From IMG/VR virus record IMGVR_UViG_3300021256_000095, positions 10,791 through 74,790 of that record: DNA of 64,000 bases. One strand, 5' to 3'. The position numbers and the translations under genes were made by a program. The first letter of the stretch is position 1. Each line of letters begins with the position of its first letter. Under the pieces are notes generated by a model, which worked only from the letters and a program-made list of their open reading frames with translations, ran no database searches and was not told the origin of the DNA. Below, piece after piece: positions 7,039 through 22,802 of this stretch. Source of the stretch: a virus (Duplodnaviria; Caudoviricetes).

Positions 7039-7686
7039 TTTTCTTTCCTTTACTTTTTTAAAAATATATATTATAATTAAAGTGAATAAATATAATAAAT
7101 ATAATATTAAATATTTTATAAAAAATCAAATCATCTATTTTTGGGAAGCATATGATGCGGGCGCGCGTGCGAGAAGCAAAAAACAACTATCAAACTCCCC
7201 TGGACTCCCTTAAGGCGGCCGCTGCCGCCCTGAGCATTCAAACATTCAAATAACCAGTGCATAAAGCCATATGCGGGCGCTCGTCTAATGCAGCGGTGGA
7301 CGAGGGTAAAGCAGGTTTATACAAGGTTAAGGAGGCGGAAACCGCAGGTTTACATAAGATTATTATGGTAAACTTAATAAAAATTAAAATTTTCTGTCAA
7401 ATTATTAAAAAAATTAAGCGAAAAGTAGCATTTTTGGGAAAAAATAAGTAAAAAATTGAAAAAAATTTTCAAAATTAATTGACATTTGATGAATTTTATG
7501 GTAGAATTGGCGCTGGACCGGTGGTCCGCGCCCCGATTATACACTTTTTGGGTGTATTTGTCAAGTATTTTATTAAAAAAAGTGCATTTTTTTGCACTTT
7601 TTCTTTATCCGGGCGCAAAAACCGCGCCTTGTCAAGCAAAAAATGCGTCTTTCAGCGCATTTTTTGCTTTTTAGGGGGCAACCGCC

Positions 7687-8061
7687 CTACTTTTTAGGCG
7701 GGCGGTGTTTGGTCAGCTTAAAGGTGTACTCTGCACCCTCATAGCTAAAAGCTATTTCAGTTTCAGTTTTTACCGCCTTTATGTCTGCCCCGATTTCCTC
7801 TAAAAGGGTCTTTACATCAGCGAGCAACCGCCCCTTTACCTCGTCAACCTTGCGCACCTTTTCAGCCTTTTTTCTTGGCTTTGCGCTCTGTTCATAACGT
7901 CTTTCCCCTTTGACGTTCTGCGCCTTTTTGGTTTCCTCAGTTGGTTCAATCTTGCCCTCTTCTTCAAGGATAAGGTCGCAAGCTTCTGTGATACTGATTT
8001 CAAGGCTCTCAACGTACTTATCAATAAGTTCATCAGATACTTCAAAACCTTTGTATTTCAT
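7687..8061 (-). CDS. Hypothetical protein
   Basis: AGAGAGG RBS, own promoter ~8088-8117, terminator 7682-7706. Confidence 0.7.
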   Translation of the reverse strand: MKYKGFEVSDELIDKYVESLEISITEACDLILEEEGKIEPTEETKKAQNVKGERRYEQSAKPRKKAEKVRKVDEVKGRLLADVKTLLEEIGADIKAVKTETEIAFSYEGAEYTFKLTKHRPPKK

Positions 8062-8135
8062 TTTTATCACCTCTCTTGTTTTTCTTTATTATATCATAGG
8101 GGCTGGCGGTTTGTCAACCCCTATTTTATATTTTT

Positions 8136-8828
8136 TTAAGAAAAACATTCTTTCCTCATTGTTTTGTGTTTTGCAAAACAATATTTTAGAATTTCCTTCT
8201 CAATTAGTACATCTTCAAGTCCAGTGTGACTTTCAATAAAGTCAAGATTATTTGTGATATATTTATAAATAACCTCGGCTTTTACTTGCGGTCTTGGCGT
8301 CTTATGCTTTGTTAAAAATCCATTTTCAAAACAAAAATTAATATAACTTGGTGTTTTAGCAATTACGTCTTGCGCCATTTTCATAGTATCCCAAATCTCA
8401 CAACCGCTTGGTAAAAAGTATCTAAATTTTGACTTTGTAAGCCACCTTTGCGTGTTATTTGTTGCACCATAGTCAAAACGCATATTGTGTGCGCAAACTG
8501 TTTTTGTATTATACCTTTTCAGCGTTTCCGCAAGGTCTTTTTTAATTGAATACCATGTTGCAACTTTACGCTTACCGCTCTTTATATCCGCATAATATTG
8601 CGGTAATTTCTCCGCATAATAACTTGATTTCATTAATTCTTTTTCATCAAAGAATATATCTCTGTTTATATATGACTTTGTTTCATATACATTACCTTTT
8701 TTATCAACAACCGCCCAACCTATGTCATATACAAACATATTATAAGGTGTAACTCCATTAAAATCTTTGTCAAGTGGGCAAGTTTCAGTGTCCATAACTA
8801 CTATATAATGTTTTCTCTTGTCTATCAA
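8136..8828 (-). CDS. DEDDh 3'-5' exonuclease
   Basis: VMDTET (ExoI), AHNMRFD (ExoII), HTGLED (ExoIII); TTG start with RBS. Confidence 0.85.
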   Translation of the reverse strand: MIDKRKHYIVVMDTETCPLDKDFNGVTPYNMFVYDIGWAVVDKKGNVYETKSYINRDIFFDEKELMKSSYYAEKLPQYYADIKSGKRKVATWYSIKKDLAETLKRYNTKTVCAHNMRFDYGATNNTQRWLTKSKFRYFLPSGCEIWDTMKMAQDVIAKTPSYINFCFENGFLTKHKTPRPQVKAEVIYKYITNNLDFIESHTGLEDVLIEKEILKYCFAKHKTMRKECFS

Positions 8829-8874
8829 TTTTGTTTACCTCTTTTCTCTTGATGATGTAATCATTATAACATAT

Positions 8875-9336
8875 TTATGCTACGTTGTCAAGTATTTTTT
8901 CAAGCTCTGTTAAAATGTTTTCATTTGCGTTTACGGTTGCGCCCAAATTCCAACCTTTACGCACTTTTTCATTATCATCAAACAATATCTGAAAACCGCC
9001 CCTTTTTCTTGTGCAATTTGCTTTTGTAGTTCCATACTTCACGAGATGTATCTCGTCATATGGAAAACCATATTTTGCAAGCCATTTAAGTTTAGCCTGA
9101 CGAACCATGTCATCATATGCTTTTGTACCACCTTTTGCGAGCCACGTTGTAACAACTACACGATAGCCATATGCCTTTAAACTATTGAGTATTTCAGCCA
9201 TATAATTCATATCATAAAACGGCTTTGCTTCATCATATGGTCTTGTGTTTTCATTCCTTAAATCATTCAGCCAACCCTCTACACCATAAAGATCAGCGAT
9301 TGTTCCGTCCATATCAAATACAAGTGTTCTGTTCAT
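8875..9336 (-). CDS. HAD-family 5'(3')-nucleotidase-like protein
   Basis: LVFDMDGTIADL motif I, ILFDD motif IV. Confidence 0.75.
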   Translation of the reverse strand: MNRTLVFDMDGTIADLYGVEGWLNDLRNENTRPYDEAKPFYDMNYMAEILNSLKAYGYRVVVTTWLAKGGTKAYDDMVRQAKLKWLAKYGFPYDEIHLVKYGTTKANCTRKRGGFQILFDDNEKVRKGWNLGATVNANENILTELEKILDNVA

Positions 9337-9541
9337 ATCTCTTACCTCTTTTCCTTTGTTTTCTTTATTATATCACTTGCGGTTGCTATTGTCAAGCACT
9401 TTTTTAATTATTTTTTTATGCTTGCTTAGTGCGCTTACCGCTCCTTACATTATCTATTATAACAGATTGATTATAAAATGCAATATACAAAATGCACAAA
9501 GTTTCAGGAGAAAATTTGTGCAAAATTTTTTAAAATTTTAC

Positions 9542-9647
9542 TTGACAAAAAAGCTCGACGGGTGTATAATGGAAATTTGGCGCGAACTCGACTTCCTCCG
9601 GGCGAGTTCGCGCCAAGGAAAATAGCCATAGTTTTCACTATGACTAT
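9542..9647 (+). ncRNA. Rightward promoter, short hairpin RNA and bidirectional terminator (unit B)
   Basis: TTGACA 9542, TATAAT 9565; 14-bp stem TTGGCGCGAACTCG/CGAGTTCGCGCCAA; terminator 9622-9647; no ORF. Confidence 0.6.
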
Positions 9648-9681
9648 AAGGAAAGGAGGTTTCAATTTTCATCTCGTTGAG

Positions 9682-9760
9682 TGGAGCGAACGGGACTCGA
9701 ACCCGTAGCATAGGTAATAATTTGTCACCCACATGGTCTGTTCCAGTTAGTCATCGCCCC
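9682..9760 (-). tRNA. tRNA-like RNA with alanine-type acceptor stem and non-canonical anticodon arm
   Basis: GGGGCGA/TCGCTCC-A acceptor (G3.U70, A73); T arm ACGGG-TTCGAGT-CCCGT; D-like AACTGG; anticodon loop CAAATTA lacks U33; no encoded CCA. Confidence 0.7.
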
Positions 9761-9811
9761 TTATTTATTTATGACCCCCTACCCCATTGGATAGGGGGAG
9801 TAACCTTTGTA

Positions 9812-10138
9812 CTACTCGGCAATCACGAACCTTGTAGGGTTCTTGCCCTTAGCTTCTATCTTTGTAACTGTCTTATCAGCTACAAGTGGACGCATAAGCG
9901 CAGAAGCTTTCTGGCAAGAGATACCAATCTCTGTACCAATTTCAGTAGCCGTTCTTGCGTGACCATCTGCAAGTATTGCAAGAATATCAGCCTTGATACC
10001 CTCATTAGCTACCTGAACCTTAGTTGGCTTTGAGGACTTTCTATCAAGAGAAGCAATCATCTTCTCAGCGACCTCTCTCATTTCATCTGTGCAACCCTCA
10101 AGTTCCATTGTCTTTGTAAGAAATTCTCTCTTTGTCAT
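9812..10138 (-). CDS. Winged helix-turn-helix protein, paralogue 1
   Basis: RTATEIGTEIGISCQKASALMRPLV HTH plus wing; clearly similar to 12995..13309. Confidence 0.75.
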   Translation of the reverse strand: MTKREFLTKTMELEGCTDEMREVAEKMIASLDRKSSKPTKVQVANEGIKADILAILADGHARTATEIGTEIGISCQKASALMRPLVADKTVTKIEAKGKNPTRFVIAE

Positions 10139-10564
10139 AATACATCTACCTCTTTCTTTTTTAATATTTTTTATTTGTTATCTTATGTACTTATTATAAC
10201 TCTTTTTTATTTAGTTGTCAAGTATTTTTTTTATTTTTTTGAGATTGTTTGTAATGGGTTTTCTCTATTAACCGCCTTGCAAGGTTTAAATTTCAGTCAG
10301 AGGAGTTTTCCGCACTCACTATTTAAACGCTCTCTTTATCTTTTGTAAGTTCATTATATCATAATGGAAAAGGATTGTCAAGACCTTTTTTCAAATTTTT
10401 TTCAACCTTGTGTGTACCTTGACTTCCTTACGCACTTGACAGGGTTTTGTTGCAAGTTTTACCAGCCTTTTCCTATTTGATAATTAAATTATAACAAAAT
10501 TTTTTAGTATTTGCAAGTACAAGATTTTTAGGAAATTTTGTGCATTTTGCACAATAAAAAAAGC

Positions 10565-10660
10565 TTGACAAAAATGGCGCGGCGGGTGTATAATATTAAT
10601 TTGGCGCTCACTCGGGGTTCGCGCCCGGTCGCCAAAAAAGAGGACTTTAATAGTCCTCTT
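10565..10660 (+). ncRNA. Rightward promoter, hairpin RNA, terminator (unit C)
   Basis: TTGACA 10565, TATAAT 10589; TTGGCG...CGCCAA; terminator AAGAGGAC/GTCCTCTT. Confidence 0.55.
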
Positions 10661-10817
10661 CTACAAAATCTTTTACTTCTATTTTATCTATAATCCCTTC
10701 AACAGCAAGCCACCTTGCAAATTCTAACACTTCGGGTTCATCTGTAATCCAGTTTATTTCTTTATCAGCATACTGTTTTAAACGTAAATCTTTAATAGTT
10801 ACAATTTTAGTATCCAT
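10647..10817 (-). CDS. 56-aa hypothetical protein (not in ORF track)
   Basis: MDTKIVTIKDLRLK...; GAAAGAGAGG RBS and own promoter. Confidence 0.65.
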   Translation of the reverse strand: MDTKIVTIKDLRLKQYADKEINWITDEPEVLEFARWLAVEGIIDKIEVKDFVEEDY

Positions 10818-10870
10818 TTGTTATACCTCTCTTTCGTTTTCCTTTATTGTATCATAGGGTTGATTATTTG

Positions 10871-11029
10871 TCAACTATTTTTATGAATAAAATTCATTAA
10901 TTTTTCTTTTGATTTAACCATTTCATTTATTATACATTGAGGGGTTTGTTCTTGTATGCATTGTGCAATATAGTCATTTAGCATAGTAATAATTATTAGT
11001 TCATCTATTGTATTAAAATCATCTTCCAT
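10871..11029 (-). CDS. 52-aa hypothetical protein
   Basis: MEDDFNTIDEL...; its TGA stop lies inside the next TTGACA box. Confidence 0.6.
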   Translation of the reverse strand: MEDDFNTIDELIIITMLNDYIAQCIQEQTPQCIINEMVKSKEKLMNFIHKNS

Positions 11030-11080
11030 TTTATTATATTTTTCTCCTTTTCTTTATTATACTACATTTGCGGTTGTTTG

Positions 11081-11338
11081 TCAACCGCAATATAGTAAAA
11101 TTATAAAATAAATATTCAGTGCTACACTTGATAAGTGCATTACAAGCCCATTTATGTGGCGGTCAACCGCAAGGTCTTTTATAACACCGATAAACGCAAT
11201 CGCAAGTCCGAACCATGCAATAGACAATCCATAAATCATAATGAGAATTACATTGATTACAGTTATTAAGCACCGCAAGTCATTGTATTCAAATCTGTAT
11301 CTTCCTTCGATTTTAAAAAACTCTTTTACTTTTGTCAT
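11081..11338 (-). CDS. Small multi-TM membrane protein
   Basis: Three hydrophobic segments; RBS present. Confidence 0.7.
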   Translation of the reverse strand: MTKVKEFFKIEGRYRFEYNDLRCLITVINVILIMIYGLSIAWFGLAIAFIGVIKDLAVDRHINGLVMHLSSVALNIYFIILLYCG

Positions 11339-11355
11339 AGGCTTTTCCTCTCTTT

Positions 11356-11523
11356 CTATTTGATACTTATTAAACGTAAATAGTTGTCTTTTGCTCTTTG
11401 TTTGCTTAACTGTCTTGTGTTTTTAGGTAAATGCTTTCTTTTTCTTTCGTTATTATTAAAACTGTTATAATACTTTATTAAAAACATTTTCCTTAATTTA
11501 TGTATTTTCATTTTTGAACTCAT
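11356..11523 (-). CDS. Basic 55-aa protein
   Basis: MSSKMKIHKLRK...; RBS and own promoter. Confidence 0.55.
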   Translation of the reverse strand: MSSKMKIHKLRKMFLIKYYNSFNNNERKRKHLPKNTRQLSKQRAKDNYLRLISIK

Positions 11524-11582
11524 TTTTATTTCCTCTCTTTCGTTTTTCTTTATTATATCACAGGGTTGACTAATTGTCAACC

Positions 11583-11783
11583 CTAAACATTTTTTACTAC
11601 AAGGACAGTTTCCTGAAGTCCGTCATTACTTGCAATATACATTTCAAATTGAGTATCCCATACTCTACCGAGTTTGATGAATGTAACCTGTGGGCTATTA
11701 TCCATCATATCAAAGAAGAGTTTTGCGCTCATGAATGTGTTGTTATTTGCTTTAAGCCAATTCTTAATTTCCCATGTGTACAT
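11583..11783 (-). CDS. Hypothetical protein
   Basis: MYTWEIKNWL...; GAAAGAGAGG RBS. Confidence 0.65.
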   Translation of the reverse strand: MYTWEIKNWLKANNNTFMSAKLFFDMMDNSPQVTFIKLGRVWDTQFEMYIASNDGLQETVLVVKNV

Positions 11784-11905
11784 ACGCTTTACCTCTCTTT
11801 CTTCTTTTCTTGAATTAAGTATATCAAAAAAAGAAGTAAAAATCAAGCCGGAATTTTGCACAAATTTTTAGGATAAAATTTGTGCAAAATTTTTTAAAAT
11901 TTTGC

Positions 11906-12001
11906 TTGACAAAAATCTTGAGCCGTGGTATAATTGAATTTTGGCACAACAGCGCGCGCTGTTGTGCCATGAAAAAAGTCGGTTAAGGAAACTTAACCGA
12001 C
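11906..12001 (+). ncRNA. Rightward promoter, perfect 28-bp palindrome, terminator (unit D)
   Basis: TTGACA 11906, TATAAT 11929; TGGCACAACAGCGCGCGCTGTTGTGCCA 11942-11969; terminator 11978-12001. Confidence 0.6.
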
Positions 12002-12021
12002 CAACCGCATCAACTATTATT

Positions 12022-12198
12022 TTATTCTTCCCAATGTTTTATAAGTTCTAAAGAGCCGTCCTTTTGTATTTCATAATGTTCATATCCAAATTTTTTATAC
12101 TTGACTGGAATTTTATTACACACAAGAATAGGTTCTCTATCTACTTCACATTCCCACGGGTCACTAAGTGGTGTACATTTTACAATTAAATATTTCAT
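12022..12198 (-). CDS. 58-aa hypothetical protein
   Basis: MKYLIVKCTPLSDPWECEVDREP...; RBS and own promoter. Confidence 0.65.
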   Translation of the reverse strand: MKYLIVKCTPLSDPWECEVDREPILVCNKIPVKYKKFGYEHYEIQKDGSLELIKHWEE

Positions 12199-12235
12199 TT
12201 TATTTACCTCTCTTCCTTTTGATAAATCTATTATA

Positions 12236-12421
12236 CTATAATTTCACTTTTGTGTCAAGTGCTTTTCTATAAAAATTATCTAATTCTACAAAAGTCATAG
12301 CGCCATTCAAATAACCTTTTACCATAATTCTAAAATACATAGATATTTTATGATCTTTACCAAATCTATTTTCTATCTCTTGCGTCATCCATTTAGTTAA
12401 ACGTACTCTTGAATTTTCCAT
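12236..12421 (-). CDS. Hypothetical protein
   Basis: GAAAGGGG RBS, 61 aa. Confidence 0.55.
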   Translation of the reverse strand: MENSRVRLTKWMTQEIENRFGKDHKISMYFRIMVKGYLNGAMTFVELDNFYRKALDTKVKL

Positions 12422-12581
12422 TTTTACTACCCCTTTCTTTTGATAAACAATCTCTCATAGTTTGTTTCATTTCTTTATATTTTTTTAAGTAGTAATGTTT
12501 ATTCATACGTTCTTTACTTAATTTATAATATACTTTTGCACTCTTATAATAAACGTAAAACATTAGATATTTATTTGTCAT
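12393..12581 (-). CDS. Basic hypothetical protein
   Basis: RBS and own promoter ~12608-12634. Confidence 0.5.
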   Translation of the reverse strand: MTNKYLMFYVYYKSAKVYYKLSKERMNKHYYLKKYKEMKQTMRDCLSKERGSKNGKFKSTFN

Positions 12582-12726
12582 TTTTATTACCCCTTTCCTT
12601 TTTCTTTATTATAACAAATTTTTATTTTCTTGTCAACTATTTTTGCAATAACTACAGTCAATATTTTATTAACTTTTAAAGCAAAGTTAGAGGAAACGAA
12701 CAAATTTCCGCCGGCTTAAAAAATTG

Positions 12727-12838
12727 TTGACAAAAACTTGTAAGTGTAGTATAATTAAGAAAGCGGCTCTGTTGCGGAAGGGACGCCCGCAACAGAGCCG
12801 ACAAAAAGTTGAGCCAAAGGCGGTAAACCTTTGGCTCA
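12727..12838 (+). ncRNA. Rightward promoter, hairpin RNA, terminator (unit E)
   Basis: TTGACA 12727, TATAAT 12750; 14-bp stem CGGCTCTGTTGCGG/CCGCAACAGAGCCG; terminator 12810-12838. Confidence 0.6.
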
Positions 12839-12879
12839 TTTAGGAAAGGAGGATTTTATATCAAACCTTATCTGTATTA

Positions 12880-12952
12880 GTAGGGTAAAGCGGAATCGAA
12901 CCGCTTATCAGCTCGCAACTTCTTGGAGATTTTACCTTTAAACTATACCCTA
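12880..12952 (-). tRNA. tRNA-like RNA without a canonical anticodon loop
   Basis: Perfect acceptor TAGGGTA/TACCCTA; D arm GTTT-AAAGGT-AAAA; T arm AGCGG-TTCGATT-CCGCT; anticodon arm folds only with a bulge and 4-nt loop. Confidence 0.7.
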
Positions 12953-12994
12953 ACCCCCACCCCAACCTTGCGGAGTGGGGGAGTAACTCACAGA

Positions 12995-13309
12995 TTACTC
13001 TGCGATGTGGTAGGTTGCAGGGTTCTTGCCCTTACCCTCTACCTTTACGACACTCTCAATCTGCTTGAGGAGTGCGGCTACCTTTGCGGTTGAGTAACCA
13101 ACCTCGTCAGCGATTTCCCTTGCGGTCATCGGCTCTGCGCCCATAACCTCAACAATTTTCGCCTTGATACCCTCGTTCTCAATCTGCGCCTTTGTCGGCT
13201 TTGAGGACTTTCTATCAAGACTTGCAATAGCCTTTGCCATTACCTCTCTCTCTTCTGAATCCTCTGCAAACATTTCCATAGCCTTTGTGAAAACTTCTCT
13301 CTTTGTCAT
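12995..13309 (-). CDS. Winged helix-turn-helix protein, paralogue 2
   Basis: MTAREIADEVGYSTAKVAALLKQI HTH; shares MTKRE, IASLDRKSSKPTK, NEGIKA, KGKNP and IAE with paralogue 1. Confidence 0.75.
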   Translation of the reverse strand: MTKREVFTKAMEMFAEDSEEREVMAKAIASLDRKSSKPTKAQIENEGIKAKIVEVMGAEPMTAREIADEVGYSTAKVAALLKQIESVVKVEGKGKNPATYHIAE

Positions 13310-13630
13310 AGTACATCTACCTCTTTCTTTTTATTTTTTATTTTGTAAGTTAATTATAACAAATCTTTTTTATTTTGTCAATAGTTTTTTTATTTTTTTT
13401 CGGTTGCGCAACCTTTCGTTTCGGTTTTGTTTTCGTATAACCTGTGGAAGAATATCCTACCCTGAAGTGCGCCAGTCTGCCATTTTTTTAGTTTCGTATT
13501 GAACTCAGAGTGAACACTGGACTGCTCTAAAGTCAACCAATCTCACGAGTTTGGTAGCCGATGTATGACACAAAACCATACATTGAAGAGTTTTTATGAC
13601 TTTGCTTTGTCATTTTCTATATTTATTATA

Positions 13631-13789
13631 TCATAGATTTTCTAATCTGTCAAGCATTTTTTTAAAATCTTTTTTGATTTTATTTCTTGAGGGGTGTTTA
13701 GCATCTTTATGCACCCTCGTACCTGTATTCATATTGTACCATACTCTTTGACTTTTGTCAAGTAGTTTTTTCTTATTTTTTTCAACCAT
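13631..13789 (-). CDS. 52-aa basic protein overlapping two promoters
   Basis: MVEKNKKKLLDKSQRVWYNMNTGTRVHKDAK...; GAAAGAGG RBS. Confidence 0.55.
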   Translation of the reverse strand: MVEKNKKKLLDKSQRVWYNMNTGTRVHKDAKHPSRNKIKKDFKKMLDRLENL

Positions 13790-14003
13790 TTTTTTATCCT
13801 CTTTCCATTTGGTATTTATATTATAACAAATTTTTATTTATTTGTCAACTATTTTTTTATTTATTCTGTGCTTTTTCGGTTTAGCACAGAGAACCGTGGG
13901 AGGTTCTTGCCTCACTTTCTGATATAATTATAGCAAAATTTTATTTGTATGTCAAGCACAAATTTTGGGAAAAATTTTGGTTATTTTGCACAAAAATTTT
14001 TAC

Positions 14004-14107
14004 TTGACAAAAACTTGGCGGTATGGTATAATGGTAAATTTGGCGCTCGCACGGGGAAGGGCACCCGCGCTCGCGCCATCAAAAAATGAGGGCGGATATC
14101 CGCCCTC
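14004..14107 (+). ncRNA. Rightward promoter, hairpin RNA, terminator (unit F)
   Basis: TTGACA 14004, TATAAT 14027; TGGCGC...GCGCCA; terminator GAGGGCGG/CCGCCCTC. Confidence 0.55.
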
Positions 14108-14307
14108 TACTCTCCAAAAATCTTATCCTGACAAGTAGGACACATACCTGAGACAATGCACTCTCTGTCTGTTGCGGACAGATAAGGGAAAGCATTCTGC
14201 ACAAGTGCGCCACTCTCATATTTTTCAAGGTCAGTCAGATTAACTTCAACTGCCCAACTTTCATTACAAAATACACAATTTCCGATAAGATTAACTCTCA
14301 CTCTCAT
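14107..14307 (-). CDS. Small Zn-finger protein
   Basis: CVFC...CPTC; GTG start with RBS. Confidence 0.65.
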   Translation of the reverse strand: MRVRVNLIGNCVFCNESWAVEVNLTDLEKYESGALVQNAFPYLSATDRECIVSGMCPTCQDKIFGE

Positions 14308-15689: not shown

Positions 15690-15875
15690 TCAACAATTAT
15701 TTTTTGCACCACAATTTTCACAATAATTTGGATATATACCTTGTGTTGACATCATTGACCTGCGGTAATTACAAAATGGACATTCAATTTGCCATGTATA
15801 TGATTGACAATCAATATCAATCCATTTCCCCTCTAATCTTGAGTTTTCAGTTTTATTAATTGTTATTCTTTCCAT
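15690..15875 (-). CDS. Zn-ribbon protein
   Basis: CPFC...CENCG motifs. Confidence 0.7.
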   Translation of the reverse strand: MERITINKTENSRLEGKWIDIDCQSYTWQIECPFCNYRRSMMSTQGIYPNYCENCGAKNNC

Positions 15876-16028
15876 TCTTTTGTCCTCTCTTTCACTTTCT
15901 ATATATATTATAACATATAGGATTTAATTTGTCAACTATTTTTTTCAAATTTTTCAAACAAACAATCAAATAACCGATTGATTTCACACACGCGGATGTA
16001 TCCGTCCCGCCCTCTATCAACTAACTTG

Positions 16029-16490
16029 CTAAGCCATAAGCTTAGCAAGTGTCTTTTCATTTGTAAAGGTTGCACCCTCAAACTTTATTTGATATGCAAT
16101 TCCATTATCCTCTACGTCACCGCCCTTGGTGAATGGTACATTATCCTTTTCCCAAACCTGACCGAACATCTGTTCAGTTACAAGTTTTTCAAAAATCTCA
16201 CCTTTATTATATTTTGAATTTGCAACCATGCTATCAAACAGCTCTTTTGAACATATAGCGGTTGCTTCATATGTCATCAGCATAGTTTTCTGTGACTTGT
16301 TAGGTTTAAATCTGAGACTGAATCCTTGACCTCTTGAAGCTCTATCGAGTGAGCATACATAAGGCATAACTGAAGAATCAGTTATAACAGCCATAATGAC
16401 ACCATTAAAAGCAAATCCGAAGATATACTCATGGGTATAGCTGATTTCATTGTAGCGGTTGATTAAGTTGTTGAAAATTGTTGTATTCAT
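16029..16490 (-). CDS. Hypothetical protein
   Basis: 153 aa, AAGAGAGG RBS. Confidence 0.7.
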   Translation of the reverse strand: MNTTIFNNLINRYNEISYTHEYIFGFAFNGVIMAVITDSSVMPYVCSLDRASRGQGFSLRFKPNKSQKTMLMTYEATAICSKELFDSMVANSKYNKGEIFEKLVTEQMFGQVWEKDNVPFTKGGDVEDNGIAYQIKFEGATFTNEKTLAKLMA

Positions 16491-16689
16491 ATTGGTTTAC
16501 CTCTCTTCCCTTACCTCTTGTATATATGATACTACTTTTGAAGCTGGATTGCAATAGTTTTTTAAAAAAATTTTGTACAAAGATTTAAGACTGTTTTTGT
16601 GCATTTTGCTACAAATTGCACACAATTTATTTTGTGCAAAACAGAGAAATTTTGGGATCATTTTTGTGCATTTTTTTCAAAAAAAATGC

Positions 16690-16993
16690 TTGACAAAACA
16701 TCTGGCGGCGTGGTATAATTAAATTTGGCGTTTTTACAAACGTGAACGTATGTTCATATGTACATATGAATATATACACATATGTGTATATACACATATG
16801 AATGACCGCTCATATGACAACGGTTCCGGGTGTGTCCTCGAACATCTGTTTGGCGCGCAACCGGTTGCGCAAAGTCGAACACCTGTTCAAACAAGTATAG
16901 CGGCTGGCTGGCGATTCGCACAGCCGCCAGCCAGCCGCCCAACGCAAAAAAGCCAGTTGTTCGGCTTTCGCTTACTGACTCTGGCTTTTTTGC
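16690..16993 (+). ncRNA. Rightward promoter and a ~270-nt non-coding, palindrome-rich transcript (unit J)
   Basis: TTGACA 16690, TATAAT 16714; nested palindromes; hairpin 16900-16938; terminator 16944-16993. Confidence 0.55.
16744..16888. promoter_or_regulatory. Three Firmicutes LexA (DinR/Cheo) box-like sites
   Basis: GAACGTATGTTC 16744, GAACATCTGTTT 16840, GAACACCTGTTC 16877 vs consensus CGAACRNRYGTTYC. Confidence 0.6.
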
Positions 16994-17490
16994 TGTCGGT
17001 GGGAGGGAACTTGCCGCCCGACCTGCTCGCACTCTCTGGCGCCCCTTGGTTCCCGAGCTTTGGCGCCCCTTTCGGTACTCTATTCAGCTATTTAATTCGG
17101 TGGTGCTCTCATACTCCTTACCTCACTTTCTGAATTAAGTATAACATACTCGGTTCAGTTTGTCAACTATTTTTTTAAAATTTTTTTGAGTGACCGCCAA
17201 GTCCGAACCTCTTTCAGCTTCATCAGCTTACTCATCACTCTGAGGGCTTTGTCCCTACTTATTTCACTGCTGTTAGCAAGTGCCCCATGTGGGTTACACG
17301 GCTGAAGGCTCTGTCGTTAATTAAAGGTCTTACACCTCGACTTGTGAGGATTTCTCGCCTACCTTACTGCTTGGAGCGGGTTGTACGCCGTGGGTTTAGG
17401 TTTTTCCTTACCTTATGTATTAAGTATAGCACTTAATTTTTAATTTGTCAACTACTTTTTTAATTTTTTTTGATTAGGTAAATGCTTCCT

Positions 17491-17775
17491 TTAGATTTCA
17501 AAGGAAGCATAGCCGAGCTGAACATCAAAGCCTTCGAAGTGGTAGATCACATAGAAGTCACCTTCGTAAGAAAGACATTCTGCTTCGAGCATTTCACGGA
17601 AAGCACCAACCGCTTCTTCATCGTCATACTCACGCTCTACTTCAGACCAATCATCATCGAAACCTTCAAAGTCCTGTAAATCTACGTGAAGCACTTCATC
17701 AGAGAGCCACATTTCAGCATCAGCACCGAGACCTTCAACAACCGCTATCATCATTTCTAAAGACATCATTTTCAT
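17491..17775 (-). CDS. Highly acidic protein
   Basis: D/E-rich ~94 aa, RBS and own promoter. Confidence 0.7.
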   Translation of the reverse strand: MKMMSLEMMIAVVEGLGADAEMWLSDEVLHVDLQDFEGFDDDWSEVEREYDDEEAVGAFREMLEAECLSYEGDFYVIYHFEGFDVQLGYASFEI

Positions 17776-17868
17776 TTCCTCTCTTTCGTTTGTTTCTATA
17801 ACTATTATAGCGTATCCGGCTTGACTTGTCAAGCACTTTTTTAAATTTTTTTGATTTTTTCAGAGGGT

Positions 17869-17976
17869 CTACTCTGAGTAGACCCAGCCCCCGATTTCAG
17901 AGGCGATGGCTTCCGCCTCAACCTCGTCGGTCGTTCTGTAGAAGAACTGATTGTTCATGTCGATTACGTAGTACAT
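17869..17976 (-). CDS. 35-aa acidic peptide, paralogue of 22440..22568
   Basis: MYYVIDMNNQFFYRTTDEVEAEAIASEIGGWVYSE; AAGGAGG RBS. Confidence 0.65.
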   Translation of the reverse strand: MYYVIDMNNQFFYRTTDEVEAEAIASEIGGWVYSE

Positions 17977-18081
17977 ACTGTGTACCTCCTTCCTTTATCT
18001 TGACTTAATTATAGCACTTTAAACCGGTGTTGTCAACCCTTTTGTGAAAAATTTTTCAAAAAAATTTTTTTAATTTTCCTC

Positions 18082-18188
18082 TTGACAAAACTCATGGCGG
18101 TGTGGTATAATATTTTCGCCCGCCAGGCGGTCGCTGAGGTCAGAGGTCGGTTGCTGAAAAACTGCGGTCTCTGATTTCAGAGACCGCA
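18082..18188 (+). ncRNA. Rightward promoter, short RNA, terminator (unit K)
   Basis: TTGACA 18082, TATAAT 18106; terminator TGCGGTCTCTG/CAGAGACCGCA. Confidence 0.5.
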
Positions 18189-18193
18189 TACTT

Positions 18194-18445
18194 TTATCTG
18201 TAATAGCTACTTAATTCAATTATCTTATGACATTTATCACATCTATAAATGTAGCTCTTTGTACTGGCAGTGCCATTACGAACTAACTGACTATATTCAT
18301 AATGACCGCCACACTCTGTACAGACACCGTTATTATAAATTTTTTCATCGTGCTTCTTTTCAAGATAGCAAACACCTACTAAAATAATTATTAATACCGC
18401 CATTCCGATAATAACCTTTACCATATTAAAAAACATTTCCTTCAT
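18194..18445 (-). CDS. Membrane-anchored Zn-ribbon protein
   Basis: N-terminal TM helix, then CTEC...CDKC. Confidence 0.7.
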   Translation of the reverse strand: MKEMFFNMVKVIIGMAVLIIILVGVCYLEKKHDEKIYNNGVCTECGGHYEYSQLVRNGTASTKSYIYRCDKCHKIIELSSYYR

Positions 18446-18603
18446 AAGAATATACCTCTCTTTCCTTTACTATGATTTAAGTATAGCACACTGGTGGGCG
18501 CTTGTCAAGCAAAATATTGCACAAAATTACAGGAAAATTTTTGTGCAGTTTGCACATAAAAAAGTGCTTGACAAACAGCCTGAGATCTGCTCTAACAAGT
18601 ACA

Positions 18604-18642
18604 GCGGTCTGCTGGCGATTCGCACAGCCGCCAGCAGACCGC
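18604..18642. repeat. Second copy of the hairpin at 16900-16938
   Basis: Identical loop ATTCGCACAGC and inner stem; three compensatory base-pair changes. Confidence 0.85.
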
Positions 18643-18657
18643 CCAAAGACGAGGAAG

Positions 18658-18825
18658 TTATTCTTCCTCATCCATCACTGGCTTAGCTATCATCACCGCA
18701 AAAGCTAACCGCAGAATGTCTATATTGGTTATTGTCTTTGCCATCCTTGAGAACTCTACCGTATATTCATCTTCAAAACCTCTTCTTCTTATCATCTCGT
18801 CAAGCATTTCTTCTCTATTCAGCAT
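18658..18825 (-). CDS. 55-aa hypothetical protein
   Basis: MLNREEMLDEMIRRRGFED...; RBS and promoter. Confidence 0.65.
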   Translation of the reverse strand: MLNREEMLDEMIRRRGFEDEYTVEFSRMAKTITNIDILRLAFAVMIAKPVMDEEE

Positions 18826-18883
18826 TTTTGTTTTCCTCTCTTTCCTTTTTGTAAGTTTATTATATCATAAAGAAGTTTACTTG

Positions 18884-19024
18884 TCAACCCTTTATTTTTA
18901 TTTTTCTAAATCTTTTATTTGCCTGTTTCTTGGTTGCAACTTTTTCTACCCACCAAAGACCGCCAAAAGTACACTGTCCTACAAATTTTGTTCTTGCCAT
19001 TTTTTTATAATCCGCTCTTCCCAT
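18884..19024 (-). CDS. Basic peptide
   Basis: MGRADYKKMARTKF...; RBS and promoter. Confidence 0.55.
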   Translation of the reverse strand: MGRADYKKMARTKFVGQCTFGGLWWVEKVATKKQANKRFRKIKIKG

Positions 19025-19081
19025 ATCTTTACCTCTCTTGTTTTTCTTTATTATATCATAAGGGGTTGAGGTTGTCAACCC

Positions 19082-19267
19082 CTATTTTCTTTTAATTTCA
19101 AATTTTTCAGTAGGAAAATCAAAACTTAATGTTATACAATTTGCATTTGTTTCAGAAATTATAGGCTCTGAATTTACCCAGATATTATAGTTAAGCTCTT
19201 TATTTATAATTATATCTGCATCCATTGGATAATCTAAAAGTTTTGTAATTAAATCTTTTACTGTCAT
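19082..19267 (-). CDS. Hypothetical protein (MTVKDLITKL..P.DA type)
   Basis: RBS and own promoter. Confidence 0.65.
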   Translation of the reverse strand: MTVKDLITKLLDYPMDADIIINKELNYNIWVNSEPIISETNANCITLSFDFPTEKFEIKRK

Positions 19268-19357
19268 TTTTTTATCCTCTCTTTAATCTTTTGTAAGTTT
19301 ATTGTATCATATATTTTTTTATTTGTCAACAACTATTTTTATTTTTCATATATGACC

Positions 19358-19666
19358 TTAGCAATATGCTAAGGTCATATTTGCCCACTTCAGAATTGAA
19401 ATCTGATTGCAAGCCCGCCCGATTGTAAGGGCTTCACGCTTGGTATTTACTCGCTTACTCTTATCTATATACCAAACACCATTTGAGAACCATATGCCAC
19501 AGTTGCCGTCATATGCTTTGATTGCCTTCATAGCAACAACCATATCTTCGGTCTCTATGCCTTCGGTGGCAACCTGCCACCCTGACTTGTAGGTTATAAC
19601 CTTACCATTCTTAAGGGTAAGCCCGCCGTTGTCCTTTATCTTTTTGAGTGTTCTTATGTTTATCAT
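19358..19666 (-). CDS. Hypothetical protein
   Basis: 102 aa, RBS and own promoter. Confidence 0.7.
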   Translation of the reverse strand: MINIRTLKKIKDNGGLTLKNGKVITYKSGWQVATEGIETEDMVVAMKAIKAYDGNCGIWFSNGVWYIDKSKRVNTKREALTIGRACNQISILKWANMTLAYC

Positions 19667-19881
19667 TTTGTTTTCCTCTCTTTCCTTTACTGTAATTAAA
19701 GTATATCATACTCAACCGGATTTGTCAACAAAAAAATTGCACAAAAATAGGATTTTTTATTGTATAAAATTTTTGAAAAAAGTGCTTGACAAAATGCGTA
19801 TAGCTGTGATATAATATTTTTGGCGTGGCGGCAGCCGCTGCCGAGTATTAAAAAAAGAAAAGGCGTTTCCGCCTTTTCTTT

Positions 19882-20010
19882 TTATGGTGTAGGAATGAAC
19901 TTTACAACCTTTCCGTGCTGACGCTCTTCCCATTTTTTCTCTGAAGCGCTCAGACCACGATACCAACACTGATAACCATCTTCAAAAATATACCAACCTG
20001 TAGACTTCAT
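19882..20010 (-). CDS. 42-aa peptide
   Basis: MKSTGWYIFEDGYQCWYRGLSASEKKWEERQHGKVVKFIPTP; RBS. Confidence 0.6.
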   Translation of the reverse strand: MKSTGWYIFEDGYQCWYRGLSASEKKWEERQHGKVVKFIPTP

Positions 20011-20122
20011 AATTTTTTACCCTTTACCTTTCGGTTTCCTTTCCTTTTGTTATATTTATAATATCATACTTTTTTTAGTTTGTCAACAACTATTTTTTAT
20101 TTTTTTATGGGAGTGAGAAGCT

Positions 20123-20284
20123 CTAATCAAAGAGTTTCTCACTTGTCTGATAAAGCTTATCAGTGAAAATGTGGTCATATACATAACGTGGATACCAAAC
20201 ACTGATAACGTCCTTCTTGCGTCCTCTTGCAAGTTCCTTTCCGTCCTTATCTCTTAAAACCCAAACTCTCCAATTCTTATTCAT
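20123..20284 (-). CDS. 53-aa peptide
   Basis: MNKNWRVWVLRDKDGKELARG...; RBS and promoter. Confidence 0.6.
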   Translation of the reverse strand: MNKNWRVWVLRDKDGKELARGRKKDVISVWYPRYVYDHIFTDKLYQTSEKLFD

Positions 20285-20661
20285 ACCTTTGTACCTTTCA
20301 ACCTTTCCGGTCGTCCTTTCCTTTATTGTGATTTTATTATATCATGGGCTTGACCATCTGTCAAGCCCTTTTTATTAAATTTTTAAGATTTTTTGTAAGC
20401 TCTCTGTCTTTCAAATGAGCAACCGGCGCTTGGCTCGTCCGCCCACCCTATTCGATTGTGTTGCTTATCTCTTATCTTGATTAAATTATATCAAACAAGA
20501 CCGGTTTTGTCAATACTTTTTTATAAAAAATTTTGCACAAATTAAGGATAAAAATTTATATAAAATTTGTGCAAATTTCCACTTGACAAAACCCGTTGCC
20601 ATGTGATATAATTTTTGGCGCTGAAACGTATGTAACGAAAAAAGAGCCTTTCGGCTCTTTT

Positions 20662-20871
20662 TTACACTGCTGTGAGTAAACCTGAATAAACTCTTAACCA
20701 CATATCCTGCATATCTGTATCATGTCCTATTGCTTCCCAAACTTTTGTGTCAAGTTCTTCAATTTCAAATTCCATTTCATCTTCGTCTACCTCTGAAAGA
20801 GACTCTGCAAAAAATGCTAATGCTTCGATATAATCCTTTTTTAAGTTCTTCTTGATTTCTTTCTTTGTCAT
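20662..20871 (-). CDS. Acidic hypothetical protein
   Basis: MTKKEIKKNLKKDYIEAL...; RBS. Confidence 0.6.
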   Translation of the reverse strand: MTKKEIKKNLKKDYIEALAFFAESLSEVDEDEMEFEIEELDTKVWEAIGHDTDMQDMWLRVYSGLLTAV

Positions 20872-21112
20872 ATTTTTGTACCTTTTCCGTTTCCGGTTTT
20901 CCTTTCCTTTACTGTAATTAAAGTATATCATCTTTAATACATTTTGTCAATAGTTTTTTTAAAATTTTTTTATTTATTTTTCTTGTCATTTTGCACAAAT
21001 TTTGTGATCAAAATTTGTGCAATTTTTTATTATTTTTTACTTGACAAATTACACTGCCATGTGATATAATTTTTTGGCGGTCAGGCGGTCGGTAACAAAA
21101 GAAAAGGCTGAT

Positions 21113-21256
21113 TTACTCAGCCTTTACTTTGTAGGTAAAAAGTGTTATTTCTTTGTAGTTACCTTTTATTTTGTTGTACTCAGTGACTGCCTCGGCTCTA
21201 TCTGTAAAAGTTGCGATTTCTTCACCCTCTGCCCAAATTTCGTAAATATTCATCAT
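21113..21256 (-). CDS. 47-aa peptide
   Basis: MMNIYEIWAEGEEIATF...; AAAGGAGG RBS. Confidence 0.6.
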   Translation of the reverse strand: MMNIYEIWAEGEEIATFTDRAEAVTEYNKIKGNYKEITLFTYKVKAE

Positions 21257-21324
21257 GTTTTTGTCCTCCTTTTGTTTTTCTGATTTAATTATATCATTGT
21301 TTTTCTTACTTGTCAACTACTTTT

Positions 21325-21432
21325 TTATTTTTTTATTATTATTTTGAAGCCCGCATTTTCAAGTCTTTTTATATCAATCTCGCTTGCTTTTGTTTTATCA
21401 ATTACATAACCATCTATCATTATTATTGCCAT
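21325..21432 (-). CDS. 35-aa peptide
   Basis: MAIIMIDGYVIDKTKASEIDIKRLENAGFKIIIKK; RBS and promoter. Confidence 0.55.
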   Translation of the reverse strand: MAIIMIDGYVIDKTKASEIDIKRLENAGFKIIIKK

Positions 21433-21518
21433 TTTTTTTGTCCTCTTTTCCTTTTTCCTTTATTATACTATTTTCATTTTGTTTTGTCAACTATTTTTTA
21501 ACTTTTTATCTTGAAGCT

Positions 21519-21677
21519 TTAAGCTTCAAGATAAAAGTTTTCTTCTTTATTCATTATTATTACAAAGTCAAGATTGAAAAGCTTCTTTTCTTTTGCGTAA
21601 AAATTAAATGTGTTCATTGCTTCTTTGTAGTTTCTTGTTTCAATGACTTCCTTATCTGCTAATAAAACTTCGTACAT
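21519..21677 (-). CDS. 52-aa peptide
   Basis: MYEVLLADKEVIETRNYKEA...; RBS and promoter. Confidence 0.55.
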   Translation of the reverse strand: MYEVLLADKEVIETRNYKEAMNTFNFYAKEKKLFNLDFVIIMNKEENFYLEA

Positions 21678-21941
21678 AATTTTCACCTTTTCAGCTTTCG
21701 CTGTCCTTTCCTTTATCTTGATTTAAGTATATCACCAACAACCGGTTTTGTCAATACTTTTTTTAAAAATTTTTTATTTATTTTTGCACAAATTAAGTGA
21801 TAAAAATTTGTACAAATTTTTTGCAAATTCTACTTGACAAAATGTGCTTTCATGTGTTATAATATTTTTGGCTTTTTTACGTTGTTTTCGATTAAATTAA
21901 AAAACTTGAAGCCTTTTGCTTCAAGTTTTTTATTTATTTTA

Positions 21942-22145
21942 TTATCTTTTATTTATCCATTCTGTGATAATCACTTTATTTCTTTTGTTTCTATCATCAG
22001 CTTCTTTTGTTTCCCATGTCCATGTATCTATCATTTTAAGCATGAAATCAACTTTTTCAATTTCTTCAAGTGCTTTATTAAGTTTTTCAATTGTATCATT
22101 GTTTGTATACTCTTTTCCTCTAATCGTGATTGTACTTTCGTTCAT
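21942..22145 (-). CDS. Hypothetical protein
   Basis: 67 aa, RBS, own promoter. Confidence 0.6.
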   Translation of the reverse strand: MNESTITIRGKEYTNNDTIEKLNKALEEIEKVDFMLKMIDTWTWETKEADDRNKRNKVIITEWINKR

Positions 22146-22439
22146 AGTTTTTACCTTTCCTTTCCTTTTGTTTGTTTTCCTTTTTCTTGAGTTAAGTATA
22201 ACAAATTAAACCAGTTTTGTCAATACTTTTTTAAAATATTTTTTATTGTTATTTTTCACAAAAATAGGAAAAAAATTTGTTTATTTTTTTGCAAAAAAAC
22301 ACTTGACAAACTATGCTGTGCTGTGGTATAATTAAATTTGGAGTTTTTTCGAGTGGTGCGGCTGGTCGCTCTTCGTGGCGTTTCAAGGCGCGGTTCGCGC
22401 ACATCAAAAAAAGAAGAGCTTTTCAGCTCTTCTTTTTGT

Positions 22440-22568
22440 CTACCAAACGAAGTCCTCGTCTGTCATGTAGAACCCGCCGATTTCCTCAGCTATGAGTCTT
22501 GCGCCTTCCTCGTCATTCTTTACTGTTGTGAATATTCTGTTGTTTGTGTCGATGATGTAGTATGTCAT
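22440..22568 (-). CDS. 42-aa acidic peptide, paralogue of 17869..17976
   Basis: MTYYIIDTNNRIFTTVKNDEEGARLIAEEIGGFYMTDEDFVW. Confidence 0.65.
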   Translation of the reverse strand: MTYYIIDTNNRIFTTVKNDEEGARLIAEEIGGFYMTDEDFVW

Positions 22569-22802
22569 ATTTTTTTACCTTAGCCTCTTGGCTTCCTTTC
22601 CTTTACTGTGATTAAAGTATATCACAAATCAATTTATTTGTCAATAAAAATTTTGCACAAAAATAGAAAAATTTTTTGTGTAAAATTTTTTAAAATTTTT
22701 ACTTGACAAAATATCTTCTTTATGATACAATTAATCTAAATTTGAATAGAGATCATTTTTGATTAATTATAATTAAATGGTAGCGGCTACAAGTTCAGCT
22801 TA

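Follow-up and report, generated by a model that had tools for sequence, protein, structure and literature searches.

The early promoter array

The DNA stretch analysed here (termed the window) comprises 64,000 nt, i.e., bases 10791–74790 of one linear virus contig of 74.8 kb (IMG/VR record IMGVR_UViG_3300021256_000095), with a GC content of ~31 %. At its centre of interest stands an array of promoters on both strands (7479–23687), extending from a leftmost face-to-face promoter pair to a divergent pair in front of a sigma-like gene, in which small leftward genes are opposed by rightward promoters without a gene of their own (termed counter-promoters or, together with the hairpin and terminator that follow, counter units). 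The best explanation sees in it the early, sigma-A-dependent part of the genome of a large uncultured phage, siphovirus-like in type, whose hosts would be anaerobic Firmicutes from gut or rumen.

A relaxed consensus scan of positions 7000–23500 yielded 130 promoter-like sites, 39 of them with 12/12 matches, as compared to 59.5 ± 9.2 sites in shuffled controls. A strict scan of the entire contig (TTGACA-N17/18-TATAAT, with no more than a single mismatch tolerated in the -10 box) located 41 leftward and 14 rightward near-consensus promoters between 7479 and 23687, and only ~6 near-perfect promoters in the other 59 kb. Both the excess over the shuffled sequences and the scarcity in the remaining contig rule out chance as the source of this density, which agrees with the promoter-dense cassette array described in an earlier reading of the letters alone (referred to as the sequence-only reading).

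The leftward promoters span 7536–23641, with -35 boxes starting at 7564, 8117, 8891, 9395, 10221, 10381, 10874, 11084, 11580, 12258, 12636, 13381, 13653, 13761, 13848, 13955, 14368, 14704, 15000, 15312, 15693, 15935, 17166, 17451, 17832, 18036, 18508, 18887, 19078, 19329, 19728, 20086, 20364, 20513, 20950, 21316, 21490, 21754, 22223, 22644 and 23641 (all on the minus strand). Most of them are followed after 19–48 nt by a strong ribosome-binding site (RBS), an ATG and an open reading frame (ORF) of 35–230 aa, matching the ~40 leftward promoters with one small ORF or an RNA each that had been counted before. The array is as dense as had been supposed in kind, but the spacing is ~1 promoter per 390 bp and not one per 300 bp. 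In 7–8 leftward promoters (8117, 11084, 11580, 14368, 17832, 19078, 20364) a stem-loop embraces the -35 box.

Counter-promoters and their targets

All 15 rightward sites listed in the sequence-only reading are present at the positions given there. Eleven match TTGACA-N17/18-TATAAT at 12/12 positions, and those at 7479 (TAGAAT) and 22703 (TACAAT) at 11/12. The site at 18568 has a perfect -35 box and no usable -10 box (TCTAAC); it looks like a decayed copy that has retained its upstream repeat and its hairpin.

The counter units (all on the plus strand) are located at 9542–9647 (promoter 9542–9570, hairpin 9577–9616, opposing terminator 9622–9647; ΔG -27 kcal/mol, z -6.6), 10565–10662 (promoter 10565–10594, hairpin ~10600–10636, opposing terminator 10636–10662), 11906–12001 (promoter 11906–11934, hairpin 11939–11972, opposing terminator 11978–12001; z -6.8), 12727–12841 (promoter 12727–12755, hairpin 12764–12800, second hairpin and terminator 12807–12841) and 14004–14107 (promoter 14004–14032, hairpin ~14041–14078, opposing terminator 14088–14107). 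Clearly bidirectional terminators close the units at 18082–18188 (promoter 18082–18111, GC-rich start, terminator 18163–18188), 19786–19885 (promoter 19786–19815, hairpin ~19820–19844, terminator 19850–19885), 20583–20663 (promoter 20583–20612, terminator 20638–20663), 21834–21935 (promoter 21834–21863, terminator 21895–21935) and 22303–22439 (promoter 22303–22332, GC-rich RNA, terminator 22406–22439); at 11906 and 14004 the rightward sense of the terminator is weaker. A further unit occupies 21041–21130 (promoter 21041–21070, terminator 21098–21130), and the decayed one 18568–18672 (hairpin 18604–18642, terminator 18648–18672). The promoter at 7479 faces a leftward one at 7564 around a GC palindrome (7509–7532), that at 16690–16719 converges with the leftward promoter at 17166 across a GC-rich non-coding stretch of ~420 nt, and that at 22703–22731 is followed by 326 non-coding nt up to the stop codon of the leftward ORF 23057–23560.

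Every rightward promoter points at the end of a leftward gene, either the stop codon of an ORF or a tRNA-like gene, at a distance of 35–110 nt in 11 cases and of 180–326 nt in four. All minus-strand terminators found by scanning the array adjoin a rightward promoter; the sequence-only reading had most of the rightward promoters run 30–100 nt into a terminator shared with the leftward genes. It had also held that none of these promoters drives an ORF with an RBS. Indeed, no ATG-initiated ORF with a Shine-Dalgarno (SD) sequence is found within 330 nt after any rightward promoter, and the only long plus-strand frame (16750–17133, 127 aa, following the promoter at 16690) is not conserved in a 74 %-related phage (L001), whose homologous DNA interrupts it. 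A coding role of the rightward units was therefore rejected.

When promoters of the window and of five relatives (45 rightward, 127 leftward) are anchored on the -10 box and compared, the two classes separate. Rightward promoters carry (i) a conserved block GCACAAATTTTGGGA ~55–67 nt upstream of the -10 box, (ii) a second half-site TTTGTGCAA, giving together the arrangement TTGCACAAA-N14-TTTGTGCAA, (iii) AAA directly after the -35 box, a TGTGG extended -10 element and GG directly after the -10 box (discriminator), and (iv) 55–75 % GC downstream of the promoter, whereas leftward promoters possess a plain A-rich UP region, a (T/C)ATGA extended -10 element and an A-rich leader with RBS. This signature and the lack of ORFs set the rightward promoters apart as a conserved class of their own, dedicated to non-coding transcription and not made up of chance sites, which bears out the corresponding earlier proposal.

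Roughly every second unit has its rightward promoter in a back-to-back arrangement with a leftward one (45–90 bp between the -35 boxes), the partner typically having TATACT as -10 box. This box is found in most leftward promoters adjoining counter units (17451, 18508, 19728, 20086–20950, 21754, 22223 and 22644, minus strand). Their leaders read TTAATCAAGATAAAGGAAAGGA, a short hairpin with GNRA loop, and then AAAGGTAAAA-ATG; the two purine-rich SD-like tracts flanking this hairpin are reminiscent of 5' stabiliser SD elements.

The non-coding stretch behind the last counter-promoter (22732–23056, 326 nt without credible ORF) is conserved with L001 inside a block of 78 % identity and could represent a long 3' untranslated region or a separate non-coding RNA.

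The upstream inverted repeat

Operator-like inverted repeats TTGCACAAA-N14-TTTGTGCAA lie upstream of the counter-promoters between 9492 and 22683, e.g., at 9492–9523, 11856–11887, 18517–18548, 20533–20574, 20991–21022, 21784–21815 and 22653–22683. The 64-kb window contains 14 exact copies of TTTGTGCAA, all of them in 9515–22661 and hence inside the array. The sequence-only reading had named an operator as part of the repeated unit; judged by its letters, this repeat is a real and array-restricted candidate for it.

The repeat could also point to replication, with the units serving as transcription-activated origins or as sources of primer RNAs beside DnaA-box-like repeats and A/T-rich DNA. A relaxed DnaA-box pattern reads TTWTNCACA. 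The sequence TTTTGCACA fits it, and inverted pairs are found next to A/T-rich tracts and strong outward promoters. The fit applies to only some of the repeat copies; many read TTGCACAAA without the flanking bases needed for a DnaA box. Furthermore, 14 dispersed copies per genome are not origin-like, and neither iterons nor replication genes occur nearby, so that a role in replication appears very improbable.

Distribution of the counter unit

Relatives of the sigma-like protein with 48–74 % identity are encoded at seven IMG/VR loci. Five of these have enough upstream DNA, and display the same architecture, with transcripts starting TT(T/C)GGCG followed by a GC hairpin. The signature is kept across phages whose sigma-like proteins are 48–74 % identical, and also in a relative with 50 % GC. 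An exact-pattern scan of IMG/VR (TTGACAAA-N12/13-TGNTATAAT-N1-10-TTYGGSG) retrieved 130 matches in 104 stretches. Among these, 98 fold below -15 kcal/mol, and 94 have within 3 kb at least three opposite-strand consensus promoters and more of these than same-strand ones. Strict criteria leave 100 units in 70 stretches; the remaining matches look like chance hits in unrelated contigs.

Relative G001 (146 kb, 93 % complete) has seven counter-type promoters, all within a 16-kb early array. The published genome of the human-gut phage phAss-1 (OQ749652.1) shares the leftward array, which there contains three or more counter units although the region has 50 % GC; promoters are never mentioned in the phAss-1 genome paper. 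Enterococcus phage VRE9_2 possesses a leftward array with ~18 near-consensus promoters and two rightward promoters whose transcripts start with a GC hairpin (candidate units from about 123,261 and 125,790 of PP680568.1). As judged from these pattern matches, the unit is a widespread family in gut and rumen phages.

The 5'-terminal hairpin

A GC-rich palindrome (TTYGGCGCG...CGCGCCR) starts 8–9 nt behind the -10 box of the counter-promoters, and then comes an A-run that serves the opposing terminator as its U-run. Folding of the first 50 nt transcribed has a median of -17.1 kcal/mol in case of the counter-promoters as opposed to -1.6 kcal/mol for 120 leftward (main-strand) promoters (Mann-Whitney, p = 6e-19). 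An alignment of 89 units gave the consensus TATAAT-GG-AA-TTCGGCGCG...CGCGCGCC-GCC-AAAAAAA. RNAalifold predicted no structure from a MAFFT alignment, in which the variable stem lengths were misaligned; pairing was therefore counted by script, sequence by sequence, in 90 units. TTYGG begins 6–7 nt after the -10 box in 80 of the 90, so that the expected start site coincides with the beginning of the stem or lies a few nt from it. The mean stem length is 10 pairs, and the closing pair covaries (C-G 38, T-A 23, C-A 1, T-G 3). Since these counts include related sequences, the covariation reflects a few lineage-level double changes and not 60 independent events. An A-run lies within ~20 nt after the hairpin in 67/90 units, and 63/90 have an opposing-strand terminator within 90 nt, which is bidirectional in 33 of the 63. 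Folding of the palindromes is equally good for either strand; among ~900 pairs, 23 G.U pairs are formed on the counter strand versus 42 on the other, which lends no support to an RNA acting from the counter strand only.

About one in ten units is a face-to-face promoter pair around a single palindrome and without a terminator. Examples are 7479(+)/7564(-) in the window, 6983/7090 in relative L006, 2131/2227 in relative L007 and two pairs in phAss-1. The -10 boxes of such pairs are 28–49 bp apart, and therefore both promoters cannot be occupied at once. One palindrome would here cap both transcripts, which agrees with the folding on both strands.

These pairs bear on a possible function as polymerase sink or in promoter competition, by which the units would hold the host's sigma-A RNA polymerase and thereby drain host promoters or tune the adjacent leftward promoter, under control of a putative protein binding the inverted repeat. 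All known affinity elements of the counter-promoters are at or near consensus, and the initial transcribed region is GC-rich, a property expected to slow promoter escape. The mutually exclusive occupancy of the face-to-face pairs, the restriction of the inverted repeat to the array and two paralogous winged-helix ORFs within the array (weak Pfam matches) would likewise fit. A dedicated class of sinks seems unnecessary, as the counter-promoters raise the promoter load of the array by no more than about 25 %; the tie to terminators and the conserved hairpin are left unexplained. Such a function is accordingly regarded as unlikely.

The hairpin itself raises the possibility that the short RNAs are the product. 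They would be stable molecules of 45–110 nt, made up of a GC hairpin at the 5' terminus and the hairpin of the terminator, acting either as cis-antisense to the 3' end of the convergent mRNA (timing of decay by RNase III, in the manner of 3'-overlapping type I antitoxin RNAs) or in trans as decoy or sponge for a host factor. A 5'-terminal stem-loop is a known stabiliser of RNA (Emory 1992, Hambraeus 2002, both listed in review PMC3997798). Stem base and leader are conserved (GGAAATTYGGCGCG...CGCGCCR), and orthologous hairpins can be identical despite diverging flanks, as between 14004 and its counterpart at 1494 in L001. In addition, the RNAs overlap the opposing terminator by 20–35 nt, and loops on the counter strand are purine-rich, SD-like 4-mers occurring in 31/90 units as compared to 6/90 on the other strand. 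Against a function of this kind, stem and loop sequences diverge widely among paralogues, so that no single target is evident, and the strands show no G.U bias. Two specific versions were rejected: targets in trans within the phage, because no hairpin has a complementary site of at least 11 nt elsewhere in the 74.8-kb contig save the shared leader and the repeat 16907–16930, and SD mimicry by the loops, because their pairing energy to the 3' end of 16S rRNA equals that of shuffled loops. Membership in a known RNA family was dismissed as well; apart from the tRNA-like leftward genes, no counter-unit RNA matched Rfam at gathering score or E ≤ 1, only a tRNA-Lys and a group I intron reaching the gathering score. 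The facing ORFs are mostly soluble and do not resemble hydrophobic type I toxins. On balance, short RNAs as the selected product are the main alternative to the boundary function treated below, though a doubtful one.

As a separate observation, the hairpin of the decayed unit (18604–18642) and positions 16907–16930, situated in the GC-rich non-coding stretch, share a 22-nt direct repeat GCTGGCGATTCGCACAGCCGCC.

Cassette exchange at the counter units

The window and L001 are collinear, with 12 blocks of 68–96 % identity separated by indels or replacements of 18–1299 nt. Block ends fall within 30 nt of a promoter core in 13 of 22 cases (7.7 expected, P = 0.018). Orthologous units hold their position: those at 14004, 16690, 18082, 21834 and 22303 correspond to 1494, 4199, 5190, 8108 and 8586 in L001. 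The hairpin at 14004 is identical in L001, the neighbouring terminator being different. The units are thus conserved as positional modules in relatives, a property on the absence of which the sequence-only reading would have been abandoned.

The unit at 7031 in L001 is chimeric: up to and including the -10 box, beginning with the upstream repeat, its sequence is that of the 20583 unit, and thereafter that of the 21041 unit. The crossover maps to a shared stretch of ~24 nt inside the two counter-promoters, with 20583–20663 as left and 21041–21130 as right partner of a recombination removing one cassette. The window therefore holds one cassette more than L001, consisting of an RNA start, a terminator, a 69-aa ORF (20662–20871), its promoter and the repeat. 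Together with the enrichment of block ends near promoters, this substantiates the predicted swapping of cassettes at unit boundaries. As a cassette was gained or lost by recombination between two counter-promoters, the array behaves like the PeSL (promoter-early stem-loop) cassette arrays of T4-type phages.

The units could instead be mainly recombination linkers or leftovers of such linkers, i.e., inverted PeSL-like repeats giving rise to transcripts without selected function; a linker role has been proposed for PeSLs (PMC2839356), and both the crossover and the breakpoint statistics would suit it. Against this, the counter class has a signature of its own, and extended -10 element, discriminator, leader, hairpin register and upstream repeat are all preserved across divergent phages. 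The 18568 copy demonstrates that decay of the -10 box does occur, so that intactness of the other copies implies selection on the promoter. Linkers without further function are therefore considered improbable, somewhat more so than a polymerase sink.

A proposed transcription boundary element

The anatomy of the units, their distinctness as a class, the coupling of the hairpin to both start site and opposing terminator, their conservation and the recombination at them are seen in the sequences. Beyond this, it is proposed that the promoters would fire, that the resulting polymerases would collide with leftward ones, and that insulation would be the selected function. The counter unit would then be a boundary element sending RNA polymerase head-on into the terminator of each early operon, the favoured reading, to which a probability of 0.36 is assigned. 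The roles offered in the sequence-only reading (RNA-polymerase sink, sRNA battery, insulators) are each no more than candidates.

The array would represent a PeSL-like set of self-promoted ORFan cassettes (ORFs without family match), in which each leftward block ends at a hairpin-capped counter-promoter. With its consensus -35 and -10 boxes, its TGTGG element, its GG discriminator and the A/T-rich DNA upstream, the counter-promoter would be of maximal-strength host type and fire toward the terminator of the block; given this near-ideal sigma-A sequence, frequent initiation is to be expected upon entry of the DNA. Counter-polymerases would travel only 45–110 nt before meeting leftward polymerases head-on at the shared terminator, and the collision would stop read-through into the next cassette, such that cassettes stay transcriptionally independent when shuffled. 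Placed beside a terminator, a counter-promoter could thus supply a converging polymerase where no convergent gene exists. Hairpins in nascent RNA block polymerase backtracking; the GC hairpin at the 5' end would in this way keep the counter-polymerase from sliding back, and the same hairpin would render the released short RNA nuclease-resistant. Insulation of this type would allow ~40 maximal promoters to coexist in 16 kb and keep each cassette self-contained after recombination, the same logic as proposed for the terminator half of PeSLs.

Two lines of published work bear on this mechanism. In single-molecule experiments, head-on collision of RNA polymerases is reported to be necessary against read-through at bidirectional terminators, with trailing polymerases completing termination and the stem-loop of the nascent RNA positioning the collision (bioRxiv 10.1101/2022.10.23.513370). 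A stem-loop located few nt from the 5' end stabilises RNA (Emory 1992, Hambraeus 2002, as listed in review PMC3997798).

Within the present data, a boundary function is favoured by the orientation of all 14 intact units towards the 3' end of a leftward block and by the pairing of each minus-strand terminator found with a unit. The A-run belongs to the family consensus, and the hairpin register is fixed to the start site. Strong folding of the first 50 transcribed nt, covariation of the closing pair, lack of coding capacity, restriction to the array in G001 and use of the units as crossover points at cassette boundaries are further points in its favour.

Several points weigh against it. A stronger terminator would be the simpler insulator. 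The ~10 % of units that are face-to-face pairs without terminator fit promoter competition better than reinforcement of termination, and ~30 % of the family members have no opposing terminator within 90 nt according to a simple scan. The equal folding of both strands and the lack of a G.U excess on the counter strand leave room for a role at the DNA level or on both strands. Finally, conservation of the inverted repeat upstream hints at regulation of the promoters, for which an insulator as such would have no use. A boundary function thus explains the face-to-face pairs and the inverted repeat poorly.

More tentatively still, one may speculate that the units constitute a new class of phage boundaries, i.e., dedicated non-coding promoters whose sole job would be to programme head-on collisions at the ends of early operons, leaving cassettes insulated and shuffleable and maybe being under the control of a protein with the TTGCACAAA inverted repeat as its binding site. 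If the boundary function holds true, this would be the first natural case of dedicated promoters placed purely to terminate or insulate neighbouring transcription, a principle directly useful for synthetic gene circuits in Gram-positive hosts, and it would explain how ~40 maximal promoters persist in 16 kb without runaway read-through. Should instead the short RNAs be the product, 7–15 undescribed small RNAs per genome would be present throughout a large group of phages from gut and rumen. Either way, the unit is a compact signature marking the early region and the boundaries of gene blocks in >60 otherwise almost unannotated genomes of uncultured phages (~130–146 kb), and it is open to experiment, since two copies occur in Enterococcus phages that can be cultured.

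Genes and RNAs of the array

Nearly all ORFs of the array are ORFans. Exceptions are an early protein of 230 aa (8136–8828, minus strand; phrog_20187, function not assigned, E 3e-46), which is among the few array genes common to Enterococcus phage VRE9_2 and is annotated there in two copies within the array, a HAD or PNKP-phosphatase-like protein (8875–9336; weak HAD match) and the two paralogous proteins with weak winged-helix matches in Pfam (9812–10138 and 12995–13309). The N-terminus of the 8136–8828 protein (VVMDTETCPLD) resembles, by eye only, a DEDD-type exonuclease motif. A tRNA-Lys is encoded at 15419–15491. Searches of the early proteins against PHROG and Pfam gave no match to known takeover proteins. 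The identity as host-takeover genes assumed in the sequence-only reading is hence not borne out, and 'host takeover' as a label for the array is an analogy rather than a finding.

Two tRNA-like leftward RNAs (9682–9760 and 12881–12951) score 27 bits versus the Rfam tRNA model (gathering score 29) and are not called by ARAGORN. Both are followed by CCTCCTTTCC, which is anti-Shine-Dalgarno-like, and a terminator, and each is situated between a counter-promoter and one of the two winged-helix paralogue ORFs.

The leftward promoter at 17166 is followed by a perfect RBS and a mini-ORF of six codons, M-R-A-P-P-N-stop (within 17100–17166, minus strand), and then by ~400 nt of GC-rich non-coding RNA (16720–17140). 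In relatives the mini-ORF is kept as MRSPPR or MRDPPS (L001:4673, L002:159 and 362, L003:2779). RAPP is a known ribosome-arrest motif, and the mini-ORF may accordingly encode a leader peptide of the arrest type.

On either side of the early region lies one copy of GAGCTTTGAGGCGTCATGAGG, the two forming a perfect inverted repeat of 21 nt (5518–5538 and 23555–23575). The right copy spans the RBS and start of the leftward ORF 23057–23560; the left copy may therefore mark the start of a paralogous plus-strand gene.

Genomic setting and host

At its right border, the array is delimited by a consensus promoter (23659–23687) and the sigma-like gene (23718–24845; phrog_5767, E 1.3e-48), both on the plus strand. 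Further to the right follow a terminase-like gene interrupted by a group I intron (26914–27134), and downstream of it genes for a portal, a prohead protease-like protein, a tape-measure-sized ORF of 2834 aa and other structural proteins. The halves of the terminase-like gene lie at 26135–26869 and 27229–28248; the intron between them scores 94 bits in Rfam, and ~50 nt of it are similar to the nrdE intron of Staphylococcus phage Twort. An anaerobic ribonucleotide reductase encoded at 61876–63906 indicates an anaerobic host.

A search with the window retrieved no close relative at the DNA level among phage records, and when the array was compared by megablast with 50,697 phage records, the tRNA was the sole match. 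At the protein level, the sigma-like protein is 38–39 % identical to counterparts in the ~140-kb Enterococcus phages EF1, H1 and VRE9, and the portal 40 % identical to that of phAss-1. Protein relatives are large siphovirus-type phages of Firmicutes; judged by its proteins, the phage is not of T4 type. When one genome per prokaryote species was scanned for the unit pattern, matches were confined to contigs of metagenome-assembled genomes from gut and rumen, mostly binned as Oscillospiraceae, Acutalibacteraceae, Ruminococcaceae or unclassified Clostridia. These bins hint at the host, short of proof.

Comparison with known systems

Examples of 3'-overlapping type I toxin-antitoxin systems are par of pAD1 (Fst/RNA II) and bsrG/SR4 (see also review PMC7472228). 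The likeness of the counter units to these is one of anatomy only, i.e., a small RNA and the mRNA of a small protein converging across a shared bidirectional terminator. By contrast, the facing ORFs of the array mostly encode soluble proteins, no direct repeats link the 5' ends, and no significant Rfam match was obtained. Type I toxin-antitoxin systems were rejected on these grounds, only one of 11 facing ORFs (18194–18445) having a hydrophobic segment.

The collision system of Wang, Watters, Ju and Liu (bioRxiv 10.1101/2022.10.23.513370) likewise has convergent transcription meeting at a shared stem-loop terminator. There, both partners are ordinary Escherichia coli genes, whereas here one of them would be a dedicated non-coding promoter only 45–110 nt from the terminator.

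The early regions of SPO1-like phages and Kayviruses resemble the array in having many consensus sigma-A promoters with extended -10 elements in front of small early genes, in Firmicute phages that later switch to a sigma factor of their own. Kayvirus vB_SauM-515A1, for example, has 58 consensus early promoters (PMC7698491). Antisense, convergent or bidirectional elements are nowhere referred to in the transcriptome paper on it (PMC7698491), and no counter-oriented non-coding promoter class was found there. More generally, the literature searched yielded no description of counter-oriented hairpin-capped promoters in phages, consistent with the earlier statement that no described system has this exact unit.

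The closest parallel is provided by the PeSL arrays of T4-type phages, in which strong sigma-70-type promoters joined to GC stem-loops lie close together among ORFans and cassettes are subject to indels (Arbiol et al. 2010, PMC2839356; Comeau et al. 2014, PMC4122927). Shared properties are (i) the repeated strong sigma-70-type promoter with A/T-rich upstream region, GC-rich stem-loop and dense arrangement among small ORFans, and (ii) service as homologous recombination sites that add or delete cassettes, here exemplified by the chimeric unit of L001. The likeness is closer than the sequence-only reading had implied, as the PeSL subclass with a stem-loop embracing the -35 box is matched by the 7–8 leftward promoters mentioned above. 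It does not extend to the counter units in the same way. Their stem-loop is located downstream of the -10 box, and a PeSL ends in an SD sequence and start codon, a feature that the leftward promoters possess and the ORF-less counter units lack. PeSLs point with their genes, whereas counter units point against them, start their transcript with the hairpin and adjoin an opposing terminator. Moreover, PeSL phages are T4-type myoviruses, in contrast to the siphovirus-like lineage of Firmicutes considered here; excised mini-circles are a further trait of the PeSL arrays. The counter unit is real, conserved and apparently undescribed, and is best regarded as a variant within the promoter/stem-loop cassette arrays of phage early regions.

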